From IMG/VR virus record IMGVR_UViG_2880395615_000008: a DNA stretch of 64,000 nt. One strand, 5' to 3'. This document shows, in pieces, positions 3,001 through 6,000 of the stretch (the stretch's first letter is position 1; each line of letters starts with the position of its first letter). The stretch comes from a virus. Taxonomy: Duplodnaviria; Heunggongvirae; Uroviricota; Caudoviricetes. Position numbers: made by a program.

Positions 3001-6000
3001 ACGCGCCGTGGGCAGTATGAACGGCAGTGCTGGTCTGGTGTATTCCCCGGTCTACCACATCGCCATTCAGAATGACGGGGCTAACGGACAGATAGGGCCG
3101 GAGGCGGCAGGCAGTCTTGTGCAGCTGATTGACCAGCGGGTGCAGGCGGTGATGCTGTCCATGCGACGTGACGGAGGAATGCTGAGTGGCTGAGATAAAA
3201 ACGCTGCATCTGGTCCCGCGTGAAGGGATGCAGGTGAGTGAGAAGCCGTCGGTGGTGAGGGTGCGGTTTGGTGACGGTTATGAACAGCGCCGCCCCACAG
3301 GGCTGAATCCTCAACTGAAGACGTTTCAGGCGGTGTTCCGGGTGACGGATGAGTCAACCCGGCGCTGGCTGGATGAATTTTTATCCTGGCATGGTGGTTA
3401 CCGTGCCTTTTTGTGGCGACCGCCGAAACATAACCGGACGGTGAGGGTGGTGTGCCGGGAGTGGAGCGTCACGGATAACGCCCGGTACAGTGATTTCAGC
3501 TGTACGATTGAGCAGGTGGTGAACTGATGCAGAATATTCATGAAGAAAGCCTGAACGAGTCGGTTAAATCAGAGCAGTCACCGCGGGTGGTGCTCTGGGA
3601 AATTGACCTGACGGTGCAGGGCGGTGAGCGGTATTTTTTCTGTAATGAGCTGAATGAAAAAGGGGAGCCGGTGACCTGGCAGGGGCGTGAATATCAGGCG
3701 TACCCGATTGAGGGCAGCGGCTTTGAGATGAACGGAAAGGGCAGCAGTGCCCGCCCGTCGCTGACGGTGTCCAATCTTTTCGGCCTTGTCACCGGGATGG
3801 CGGAGGATTTGCAGAGCCTGGTGGGGGCCACGGTGGTCCGCCGCCGGGTGTATGCCCGTTTTCTGGATGCGGTGAATTTTGTGGCAGGCAATCCTGAGGC
3901 AGACCCTGAGCAGGAGCTGACGGACCGGTGGGTGGTGGAGCAGATGTCATCGCTGACGGCCATGACGGCCTCGTTTGTGCTGGCGACACCGACGGAGACG
4001 GACGGGGCGCTGTTTCCCGGTCGCATCATGCTGGCGAACACCTGTATGTGGGATTACCGGGGCGATGAATGCGGGTATAACGGTCCGGCAGTGGCGGATG
4101 AGTTCGACAACCCCACCACGGATATCCGGAAGGACAGATGCAGTAAATGCATGCGCGGGTGTGAGATGCGCGGCATGGCGGTCAATTTTGGCGGTTTCCT
4201 TTCCATCAATAAACTTTCGCAGTAAATCCTGTTTTATGACACAGACTGAATCAGCGATTCTGGCGCATGCCCGGCGGTGTGCGCCTGCGGAGTCGTGCGG
4301 CTTCGTGATAAGCACGCCGGAGGGGGAACGGTATATCCCTTGTGTGAATATCTCTGCAGAGCCGGAGGCGTATTTTCGTATCGCACCGGAAGACTGGCTG
4401 CGGGCAGAGATGCAGGGGGAGATTGTGGCACTGGTCCACAGTCATCCCGGTGGTCTGCCCTGGCTGAGCGAGGCCGACCGGCGGCTGCAGATAAAAAGTG
4501 CACTGTTCTGGTGGCTGGTCTGCCGGGGGGAAATTCATAAATTCCGCTGTGTGCCACATCTGACAGGACGGCGCTTTGAGCACGGGGTGACGGACTGTTA
4601 CACGCTGTTCCGGGATGCCTACCATCTGGCGGGAATTGATATGCCGGATTTTGAGCGTGAGGATGACTGGTGGCGCAACGGTCAGAACCTTTACCTGGAC
4701 AATATGGCGGTCACAGGCTTTTACCGGGTGCCCCTGTCCTCTGCACAGGCGGGCGATATCCTGCTGTGCTGCTTTGGCGCATCGGTGGCCAATCATGCCG
4801 CCATATACTGCGGCAACGGTGAGCTGCTTCACCATCTGCCTGAACAACTGAGTAAACGGGAGAGGTATTCCGAAAAATGGCAACGACGAACGCATTCAGC
4901 CTGGCGTCACCGCCACTGGCACGTATCTGCCTTCACGGGGATTTACAACGATTTGGCCGCCGCCTCAGCCTGTATGTGAACACGGCAGCGGAAGCCATCC
5001 GTGCCCTGTCGATGCAGATGCCGGGATTCCGCCGTCAGATGAACGAAGGCTGGTACCAGATACGTATTCGCGGTGAGGACACGGCACCGGAGGCGGTGTA
5101 CGCCCGTCTTCACGAACAGCTGGGTGAGGGAACGGTCATCCACATTGTGCCGCGACTGGCCGGGGCCGGAAAGGGTGGACTGCAGATTGTGCTGGGGGCG
5201 GCAGCCATCGTGGGCTCTTTCTTCACTGCCGGGGCATCAATGGCGTTATGGGGTTCAGCCCTGGCAGCCGGTGGTTTTTCTGCCACCACGATGCTGTTTT
5301 CACTGGGGGCCAGCATGATACTGGGTGGTGTGGCTCAGATGCTTGCCCCGAAGGCAAAAACACCGGATTACCGCGCAACGGATAACGGCAGACAGAACAC
5401 GTACTTTTCCTCACTGGACAACATGATTGCTCAGGGGAACCCGATGCCGGTGCCTTACGGTGAAATGCTGGTTGGTTCACGACGGATATCCCAGGACATC
5501 AGCACCCGTGATGAAGGCGGAGACGGGAAAGTGGTGGTTATCGGGCGGGGATGAAAATAAAAAAATCCCGCAGAGTTAGCGGAGCTGCGGGAGAGAACGA
5601 TGAAGATTAACGTTATGGAGTTATTTTTCAGGCATCAAAAAAGTAATGCAGCGTCATTATTGCGGCTACAGGCAATTGCCGGAAATGTGAAGAGTTTCAG
5701 AAATTTTATTCCGTCATGACACAGGCACCCTCCGGGGTGCCTGTTGTTTTCTGGCATAAACAGATTCAGACATCAGACAGGAGAGGGGGACAGAGTGGGT
5801 AAAGGGGGCGGCAAGGGGCACACGCCGGTTGAGGCAAAGGACAATCTTAAGTCCACGCAGATGATGAGCGTGATTGACGCCATTGGTGAAGGGCCGATTG
5901 AAGGTCCGGTGAAGGGGCTGCAGAGTATCCTGGTGAACAAAACCCCGCTGACGGACACGGACGGTAATCCTGTGATACATGGTGTGACAGCGGTCTGGCG

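Follow-up and report, generated by a model that had tools for sequence, protein, structure and literature searches.

In the 64,000-nucleotide stretch of DNA analysed here (the window), the sequence of which is that of E. coli O55:H7 CB9615, the gene for tail assembly protein I (4976..5554, plus strand, stop codon 5552-5554) is separated from that for the host specificity or tail tip protein J (5795..9271, plus strand, GTG start at 5795) by a spacer of 240 bp (5555-5794). Both genes were placed by mapping the RefSeq annotation onto the window and from the ORF list. The second prophage of the window carries the spacer again at 57013-57252, with 240 of 240 positions identical to the first copy, while the I and J coding DNA flanking both copies has an identity of only 90-97% per 300 bp between the prophages. 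The corresponding spacer of lambda has only 60 bp and holds no annotated gene. A sequence-only reading of this DNA had reported such an insert, its presence in both prophages and the lack of a gene between I and J in lambda, and our analysis bears out all three points. It had also described two hairpins with an ORF between them, and these elements exist as well: both hairpins are stable (8 bp on the left; 10 bp and -23.1 kcal/mol on the right), and an ORF of 39 codons, preceded by GGGAG as a Shine-Dalgarno sequence, is located at 5600..5719 on the plus strand.

The spacer had been interpreted as a classical moron, with a 39-aa protein expressed from the plus strand between the two hairpins. 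An ATG with GGGAG 8-12 nt upstream, 39 open codons and a plus-strand terminator behind them are in favour of this interpretation. However, among 80 unique spacer variants the start codon was ATG in 44 and ACG, ACA or AAA in 36, and the length of the frame was scattered from 5 to at least 56 codons because of frameshifts and stops. A scan for sigma-70-like promoters over positions 4800-6500 found no promoter-like site above threshold on either strand, and the promoter-like sites of the homologues were on the minus strand only; a plus-strand promoter that would drive the ORF or a plus-strand sRNA was therefore rejected. Furthermore, the apparently conserved N-terminus MKINVKEL overlaps the seed of an antisense sRNA (see below), and one phage record annotates here another, overlapping 'hypothetical protein' and not the 39-aa ORF. 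The sequence-only reading had itself named conservation of the peptide as the check on its proposal; with the start codon lost in 36 of the 80 variants and the frame broken, the peptide is not conserved, and therefore the coding interpretation fails by that criterion. We regard expression of such a protein as very improbable. Judged from its sequence, the 39-codon ORF is a chance frame, antisense to the sRNA and the sRNA promoter, and not a gene.

The T-run of the left hairpin is on the minus strand, and the hairpin is therefore a terminator for the strand opposite to the tail genes. The proposed plus-strand order of promoter, ORF and terminator does not stand, since there is no plus-strand promoter-like site and the left hairpin terminates a minus-strand sRNA. 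The minus-strand terminator scan and the fold placed this intrinsic terminator at 5559..5592, with an 8-bp stem (5592-5585/5573-5566), an 11-nt loop and a U7 tail (5565-5559). Across the variants the hairpin was retained despite changing loops and stems, always with the A-run on the plus side. Covariation was judged from the variant list and with RNAalifold, in which the left hairpin was the sole consensus structure, with compensatory changes in two of seven pairs. The adjoining minus-strand region 5593..5622 is unpaired in the consensus fold and represents a single-stranded seed region with two blocks, AACUCC (5622-5617) and UAAUCUUCAU (5609-5600), which were conserved in 13 variants picked by BLAST and in 45 unique sRNA variants. 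When read on the plus strand, these blocks are the 'SD/ATG AAG ATT AAC' of the apparent ORF.

An RNA with this position and strand has been mapped in EPEC E2348/69, namely PasB (pathogenicity-associated sRNA B), which is 83 nt long and Hfq-dependent (Pearl Mizrahi et al., 2021, PMC8550237) and the distribution of which was studied by Zhu, Shabalina and Storz (2026, bioRxiv 10.64898/2026.05.13.724894). In the E2348/69 genome (NC_011601), I ends at 1466255, J starts at 1466496, and PasB runs from 1466343 to 1466261 on the strand opposite to I and J. It maps onto the window from 5634 to 5559, and by this homology we placed the ends of a PasB/EcOnc22-type Hfq-binding sRNA at 5559..5634 on the minus strand. 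Its second copy was located at 57017..57092 (minus strand) by pattern matches in the identical spacer. PasB and the window sRNA share the lambdoid I-J slot, the opposite-strand orientation, the seed blocks, the upstream region and the terminator stem CCCGCAG/CUGCGGG with its U7 tail, and 64 of 85 aligned columns are identical. The northern probe used for PasB, AATCCCGCAGTGATCGCGGAGCT, has the plus-strand sequence of this left hairpin as found in spacer variants. Between the homologous ends the window variant has 76 nt compared with 83 nt in PasB, with a deletion of 6 nt in the 5' part, another loop in the terminator and several substitutions in the seed (UAAUCUUCAUCG in the window, UGAUCUUCAUUUG in PasB). 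Because of this deletion and these substitutions, the targets of the window variant may differ from those of PasB.

In EPEC, the baseMean values were 4.8 for I and 15 for J, and those for pasB were 482 under activating and 1082 under non-activating conditions, with log2 fold changes in the hfq deletion of -6.8 and -2.4, respectively (PMC8550237). RIL-seq in the same study found 37 partners of PasB, 30 of which were CDS or 5'UTR, and PasB was RNA2 in 99-100% of its chimeras (PMC8550237). What is known of expression, transcript length, dependence on Hfq and RIL-seq partner number comes from published work on DNA identical or homologous to the spacer, and by analogy it would apply to the window variant.

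The identical DNA is that of EHEC O157:H7 Sakai, in which the Hfq-bound sRNAs EcOnc22, EcOnc23 and EcOnc24 were mapped (Tree et al., 2014, PMC4104026, Table S2); northern blots showed a band of about 85 nt, and without Hfq the RNA was destabilised (PMC4104026). The window spacer is 100% identical to the spacers of Sakai prophages Sp11, Sp14 and Sp15. The Sakai tail genes lie on the minus strand, with the EcOnc22-24 peaks opposite to them on the plus strand; in the old coordinates the three Hfq-CRAC peaks are 22-24 nt from the J start at all three loci. Because only peak coordinates of the older genome have been published, the peaks have to be shifted by about +140 bp for this assignment, a correction that we derived from two landmarks, AgvB and HnrS; the corrected peaks fall on the window minus strand from about 5631 to 5571. 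We infer that EcOnc22 is the sRNA of the I-J spacer, on the basis of this shift (two landmarks, three loci) and of coordinates published without a sequence. In peak position, strand, length (about 85 nt) and dependence on Hfq, EcOnc22-24 fit the minus-strand sRNA of the window. The entry for PasB in Table S6 of PMC8550237 has no note of an EHEC homologue, and the term 'EcOnc' is absent from the text of the 2026 bioRxiv study. Neither RefSeq nor Rfam lists an RNA in the I-J spacer; the Rfam covariance models, including AgvB (RF02702) and AsxR (RF02703), gave no match to the spacer at the gathering score, and at a permissive threshold there were only chance-level matches (E of about 0.8 or higher). 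A scan of genome contigs gave matches only in E. albertii and in three implausible short contigs.

The candidate promoter region of the sRNA is located at 5640..5661 on the minus strand and contains two possible -10 hexamers, TACTTT (5645-5640) and AATAAT (5661-5656); if the latter is used, the primary 5' end could reach about 5649. The position of TAnnnT is fixed in 74 of the 80 variants, and.A...T in 73. For the window variant, the terminator was called on the minus strand and the sRNA promoter itself was below the scan threshold. In E2348/69, an upstream minus-strand candidate, TTCACA-16-TATAAT, matches at 11 of 12 positions, as does the minus-strand promoter of the PPompW-type spacer, and the best E2348/69 -10 element predicts a start 15 nt farther upstream than the 5' end reported for PasB.

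Further upstream, a CRP-like palindrome, TGTGA-N6-TCAGA (5686..5701; in the second prophage 57144-57159 by pattern match), lies inside a block (5684-5709) that did not change among 13 variants with identities of 72-100%. It agrees with TGTGA-N6-TCACA at nine of ten positions. A class I CRP site is taken as this sequence centred near -61.5 from the start; the centre of the window box (5693.5) is at -59.5 from the homology-mapped 5' end of the sRNA, and at -60.5 to -61.5 if transcription starts 1-2 nt downstream of that end. The core of the box was present in 125 of 126 loci picked by the terminator pattern alone, and it is repeated with every sRNA unit in tandem arrays. Within the window, the count of CRP-like motifs was not above chance. 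On CRP control the data are correlative only: RIL-seq fragments of PasB numbered 258 in DMEM and 1820 in overnight LB (PMC8550237). The same comparison of DMEM and LB gave 7925 and 387 for the CRP-repressed Spot 42, and 4299 and 7362 for the CRP-activated CyaR (PMC8550237). From the sequence, CRP may bind at the TGTGA-N6-TCAGA box, and cAMP-CRP could activate the sRNA from there, about 60 bp upstream. The presence of a conserved CRP-like box at this distance from the mapped 5' end, moving together with the sRNA units, appears to be new.

The tandem arrays are found in some prophages, in which the sRNA module has expanded to two or three units with different seeds, each duplicated as a whole with terminator, seed, promoter and CRP-like box. 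The right hairpin behaves differently: in both tandem arrays that were read it is single and stands after the last unit. This terminator-like hairpin with its T-tract was placed at 5721..5752 on the plus strand, just upstream of the J ribosome site, by the terminator scan and the fold (57179-57210 in the identical copy, also plus strand). It has 10 bp at 5721-5744 with the loop TCCG, followed by TGTTTTCT; its folding energy corresponds to z = -4.7, and a terminator was called on the plus strand. Many loci carry the compensatory change C>T/G>A, and the G.U intermediates are in favour of the plus strand, with six unique variants compared with one. The right hairpin is an element of the I-J backbone and not a part of the sRNA unit, a point that also appears to be new. 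A terminator inside the late operon had been considered unusual; hairpins before J are, however, also found in the 60-bp spacer of lambda and in the unrelated PPompW-type spacers. Homology of the lambda spacer with the right part of the window spacer was rejected, since the local alignment score was within that of shuffles, and the likeness is only architectural.

These hairpins bear on another interpretation, in which the spacer merely serves the intercistronic control of late mRNA and the Hfq signal is a by-product. The GC hairpin and U tract before J in the lambda and PPompW-type spacers, and the plus-strand bias of the wobble variants in the right hairpin, would agree with it. It leaves unexplained, however, the minus-strand terminator with its U-run and the near-consensus minus-strand promoter, the strong expression from the minus strand at a time when I and J are off, and the tandem duplication of whole units. 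Moreover, the published northern blots and RNA-seq point to a discrete primary minus-strand transcript in lysogens, and we give this interpretation hardly any credence. In this study, we concluded that the I-J spacer very probably contains a small RNA gene that is transcribed independently, on the opposite strand, and belongs to the PasB/EcOnc22-24 family. The insert noticed in the sequence-only reading is real and yet already known, because the spacer is the locus of a published Hfq-binding sRNA on the opposite strand.

Considering this conclusion, we propose the following model. In the lysogen, the late tail genes would be off, and a sigma-70 promoter inside the spacer would fire leftwards, producing an sRNA of about 76-92 nt that starts at a predicted position and ends at the intrinsic terminator abutting the I stop codon. 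The RNA is built like an Hfq-dependent trans-acting sRNA, with an unstructured 5' two-thirds, a terminator hairpin and a U7 tail for Hfq binding. AACUCC would serve as an anti-Shine-Dalgarno-like pairing element and UAAUCUUCAU as the second block, and most likely the sRNA would base-pair, assisted by Hfq, with ribosome-binding or coding sites in mRNAs of the host and of prophages. The plus-strand hairpin in front of J may stop polymerases without Q modification, or may stabilise the I end of the late mRNA; a Q-modified polymerase would read through it.

The sRNA might instead act mainly in cis, as an antisense regulator of J expression that the late mRNA sponges on induction, and a trans role would be compatible with this. 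Such a role is proposed because every late transcript contains, in its I-J spacer, the perfect complement of the sRNA. It would fit the position of the sRNA wholly within the late operon on the opposite strand, the recurrence of this position in many lambdoid prophages and the confinement of the tandem arrays to the I-J spacer. On the other hand, the sRNA is expressed while the late operon is silent, experiments give no hint of cis action, and RIL-seq gives 30 CDS or 5'UTR partners elsewhere. Conservation does not discriminate here, because the target spacer co-varies automatically with the prophage-variable seed. We therefore regard a mainly cis-acting sRNA as unlikely, and prefer the trans-acting sRNA of the PasB/EcOnc22-24 family.

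Other prophage sRNAs were compared with this unit. HnrS (EcOnc10-12), a repressor of hha, is a prophage sRNA present in multiple copies (Poudyal et al., 2026, PMC13502914). It resembles the window sRNA in being short, Hfq-binding and multicopy and in lying within the late genes of these EHEC prophages, and the octamer UAAUCUUC is common to both. In contrast, its locus is near terminase, DNase and lysis genes. HnrS, with up to nine copies, was rejected as the identity of the window sRNA on account of this other locus; its seed CUUCUACCC, which pairs with the hha ribosome site, was not found, and a search of the window with the HnrS sequence gave no match. Repression of hha by PasB was also rejected, since 29.7% (window) and 19.7% (EPEC) of 300 shuffled sRNAs paired at least as well, in a duplex prediction that reproduced the published hha site for the HnrS control. 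The anti-sRNAs AgvB and AsxR have another site, downstream of PR', and another sequence, and were likewise rejected. With phage morons, as PMC4104026 describes them after Juhala et al. (2000), the unit shares extra DNA between conserved late genes and a terminator of its own, and it would also share a promoter of its own and expression in the prophage while the neighbours are off; compared with that description, its product is a non-coding RNA and it is transcribed against the late operon. Of the moron interpretation, the extra DNA relative to lambda, its conservation in both prophages and its behaviour as an independently transcribed late-operon insert hold, and the strand and the product do not.

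These results correct a tempting mis-annotation, as the picture of Shine-Dalgarno sequence, ATG, ORF and terminator is the mirror image of an sRNA gene. They also join two names in the literature, PasB of EPEC and EcOnc22-24 of EHEC, for an RNA that is unannotated in RefSeq and Rfam and that about 15% of the complete E. coli genomes carry, mostly in multiple copies. The published basic picture is unchanged by the new points; the conserved CRP-like box, the seed variation from prophage to prophage and the tandem arrays provide handles for experiments. As a speculative extension, which we hold to be rather doubtful, the locus could be a catabolite-controlled module, in which the cAMP-CRP box turns PasB/EcOnc22 on without glucose and the sRNA also acts in cis at induction. 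The latter is proposed because the I-J spacer, as part of the late transcript, has a perfect antisense partner in this RNA, and either the synthesis of the J tail tip would be tuned or the sRNA would be titrated by the late mRNA. If this is true, the carbon status of the host would be linked with a regulon that the prophage encodes and with the assembly of virions.

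The 240-bp spacer (5555-5794) between the genes of tail assembly protein I (4976-5554) and host specificity protein J (5795-9271) is a real, conserved feature that was first read on the wrong strand: it encodes an already published, Hfq-dependent sRNA of prophages (PasB, apparently equivalent to EcOnc22-24). The spacer, its two hairpins, a 39-codon ORF (5600-5719) and the second copy (57013-57252) were all seen where the sequence-only reading had placed them, and the 60-bp I-J spacer of lambda holds no gene; the observation itself was therefore confirmed. The two copies match at 240/240 positions, with 90-97% identity per 300 bp between the prophages in the surrounding I and J coding DNA, and positions 4500-7000 match E. 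coli O55:H7 CB9615 at 100% identity. Of 5426 complete E. coli genomes, 801 carry the spacer (median 3, maximum 9 places per genome), and it also turns up in 147 phage records, chiefly Stx-converting phages, at 72-100% identity. RefSeq has no annotated feature between I and J, the spacer is unannotated in all E. coli matches listed, and no Rfam family matches it.

The ORF had been taken as the gene in a promoter-gene-terminator layout typical of a moron, present in both prophages. In a set of 80 unique spacer variants, drawn from BLAST hits and public phage contigs, the codon matching the ATG at 5600 is ATG in 44 and ACG, ACA or AAA in 36, and the frame measures 5 to 56 codons or runs beyond the extracted segment, its ends being scattered because of indels and stops. 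The seemingly conserved ORF start, MKINVKEL, is the conserved seed of the sRNA read on the opposite strand. With the start codon lost and the frame broken in this way, the ORF is not a gene and the peptide hypothesis is refuted. The layout failed as well: no sigma-70-like promoter was called on either strand of 4800-6500 at the scan threshold, and the left hairpin, next to the I stop, was called by the terminator scan as a minus-strand terminator, because its T-run (plus-strand A-run, 5555-5565) lies on the gene I side.

PasB of EPEC E2348/69 is an 83-nt minus-strand RNA (NC_011601, 1466343 to 1466261) between E2348C_1436 and E2348C_1437, in the orientation "(> <) >" (Pearl Mizrahi et al., 2021, Table S6; PMC8550237). 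These neighbors, both plus-strand genes, encode a tail assembly protein (end at 1466255) and J (start at 1466496). In several aligned spacer variants, the northern probe for PasB, AATCCCGCAGTGATCGCGGAGCT, corresponds to the left hairpin as read on the plus strand. By pairwise alignment, the PasB ends map to 5634 and 5559 on the minus strand of the window, and the two sRNAs are identical at 64 of 85 aligned columns. In EPEC, I and J are nearly silent (baseMean 4.8 and 15). The values for pasB in DMEM and overnight LB are 482 and 1082, and its expression falls in an hfq deletion (log2FC -6.8 and -2.4; PMC8550237). Of its 37 RIL-seq partners, 30 are CDS or 5'UTR, and 99-100% of chimeras have PasB as their second RNA (PMC8550237), which is an sRNA signature.

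In the predicted fold of the minus-strand RNA (5634 to 5558; -15.8 kcal/mol, z = -3.1), an 8-bp terminator hairpin is joined by only weak 5' pairing. The sole consensus helix among 14 diverse variants is the 7-bp terminator stem, with compensatory changes (G-C to A-U) at two pairs and all upstream sequence unpaired. This hairpin is retained despite differing loops, a shortened stem-loop or another stem (CTCCCG/CGGGAG), and its plus-side A-run is present in all variants. AACUCC and UAAUCUUC(A/G)U are the conserved single-stranded blocks, and the 45 unique sRNA versions vary in the 5' part and linker. PasB shares UAAUCUUC with HnrS, a prophage sRNA repressing hha (PMC13502914). HnrS was considered as the spacer RNA, since it is a multicopy sRNA found in the late region of these prophages, but it belongs to another locus and is absent from the window. 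Pairing of PasB with hha was predicted no better than for shuffled controls, whereas HnrS recovers the published site. Other known prophage RNAs in the window are DicF (24511-24562, minus strand), the sok antitoxin RNA (31676-31850, plus strand) and STnc100 (36759-36959, plus strand), the last related to PasD by Zhu, Shabalina and Storz (bioRxiv 10.64898/2026.05.13.724894). The stretch directly downstream of J (9353-10534) holds the IS3-like ISEc31 transposase gene (minus strand) and, after it, the full-length Hfq-binding RNA isrC (10412-10534, minus strand, 150 bits).

In Sakai, the I-J spacers of prophages Sp15, Sp14 and Sp11 are exact matches of the window spacer, and for them Hfq-CRAC peaks EcOnc22, EcOnc23 and EcOnc24, respectively, were reported on the plus strand (Tree et al., 2014, Table S2; PMC4104026). 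The tail genes at these loci lie on the minus strand, opposite to the peaks, and the northern band is ~85 nt and destabilized without Hfq (Tree et al., 2014; PMC4104026). Read unchanged on the current RefSeq record, the published peaks would begin 22-24 nt from the start of J at 3/3 loci. Two RNAs whose sequences are known, AgvB (old peak 1941783-1941835; sequence now ~1941923-1941980) and HnrS (2234239-2234287; now ~2234371-2234436), indicate that Table S2, based on an older genome version, runs ~140 bp below NC_002695.2 at 1.94-2.23 Mb, and we infer that this shift extends up to 2.90 Mb. Corrected by +140, the EcOnc22 peak falls on the window minus strand at ~5631 to 5571, within the PasB homologue; uncorrected EcOnc coordinates lead to the wrong feature on the current Sakai record and, at the I-J spacer, to the wrong hairpin. 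Given this coordinate shift, PasB would be the equivalent of EcOnc22-24. The PasB row of Table S6 (PMC8550237) carries no EHEC-homologue note, whereas the PasA and PasD rows do, and "EcOnc" is absent from the text of the 2026 preprint (bioRxiv 10.64898/2026.05.13.724894); the two names therefore do not seem to have been equated before. In Sp15, J downstream of EcOnc22 is annotated in two pieces (ECs_2944 and ECs_2943) and is probably disrupted, and the sRNA locus there is intact.

Two hexamers are candidate -10 elements of the sRNA promoter, judged from sequence. The upstream one is part of TTCACA-16-TATAAT (11/12 match) on the minus strand of E2348/69 and PPompW-type spacers. In the window variant it is AATAAT (5661-5656), preceded by a poor -35, and the start predicted from it lies ~15 nt further upstream than the 5' end reported for PasB. 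The downstream hexamer TAnnnT (TACTTT at 5645-5640 in the window, TAGTGT in E2348/69) predicts the reported end; its position is fixed in 74/80 variants, the upstream hexamer is.A...T in 73/80, and one divergent unit lacks the upstream and keeps the downstream one. Upstream of the promoter, the 26-bp block AATGTGAAGAnnTTCAGAAnTTTTAT (5684-5709; copy 57142-57167) is the best conserved part of the spacer, unchanged in 13 variants with a mean column identity of 58%, and its core occurs in 125 of 126 loci picked by the terminator pattern alone. Exact copies of the block also occur in Asaia, Parendozoicomonas and Streptomyces assemblies, on very short contigs that most likely represent contamination with E. 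coli or lambdoid DNA. In an IMG/VR contig (L065), foreign DNA beginning with an ATG-led frame (MTKNTRFSPEVRQRAV...) splits the pasB unit just downstream of the conserved block and looks like an insertion sequence.

Within the block, TGTGA-N6-TCAGA matches the CRP core consensus, TGTGA-N6-TCACA, at 9 of 10 positions, and the motif alone occurs in the window at 4 places against 2.5 expected, not above chance. Its center (5693.5) lies at -59.5 from the homology-mapped sRNA 5' end. A true start 1-2 nt further downstream would put it at -60.5 to -61.5, and the usual position of class I CRP sites is close to -61.5. CyaR is activated and Spot 42 repressed by CRP. RIL-seq fragments in overnight LB vs DMEM number 1820 vs 258 for PasB, 7362 vs 4299 for CyaR and 387 vs 7925 for Spot 42 (PMC8550237). 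The PasB pattern, like CyaR and opposite to Spot 42, is consistent with CRP control but not decisive, as growth phase differs too between the conditions. Neither "CRP" nor "promoter" occurs in the main text of the preprint (bioRxiv 10.64898/2026.05.13.724894).

The right hairpin (5721-5744 plus TGTTTTCT), just before J, was called as a plus-strand terminator and proved stable (-23.1 kcal/mol, z = -4.7). It is conserved, with a frequent compensatory variant (GGCATCC...GGATGCC), and single-step intermediates have a plus-strand G.U in 6 unique variants vs 1 opposite. A terminator inside the late operon had been considered unusual. However, the 60-bp lambda spacer (L211, 15445-15504), whose similarity to the window spacer is not above shuffles, has its own hairpin (CCGCC-TGCG-GGCGG-TTTTG, -19.1 kcal/mol), and the PPompW-type spacer (PPompW_EH1992; L017, 663-840) has an unrelated hairpin with a U tract (-29.9 kcal/mol) and a further ~100 bp of extra sequence; the terminator scan called neither. 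A terminator-like hairpin before J is thus a recurrent backbone feature and not part of the insert. In lambda, Q-modified polymerase reads through such sites. The right hairpin would block unmodified polymerase or protect the I segment at its 3' end.

Two or three sRNA units stand in a row in 7 of 209 spacers examined (L060, 4419-5040; L020, 9820-10160; L035; L074; L094; L144; L188), with the units repeating every 179 or 230-240 bp. In L060 and L020, where five units were read, every unit comes with a minus-strand terminator, a seed, a promoter region and a TGTGAAGAnnTTCAGA box, so the box belongs to the sRNA unit; in these two arrays the right hairpin occurs once, behind the final unit. A distinct sRNA (terminator CTCCCG/CGGGAG, seed AACUCCUUAAGGUGACUAUUCG) makes up one unit type. 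Duplication and diversification of the unit are thus possible inside a single I-J spacer. Together with the CRP-like box and the PasB/EcOnc22 equivalence, these tandem arrays are modest additions to the known picture of this prophage sRNA.
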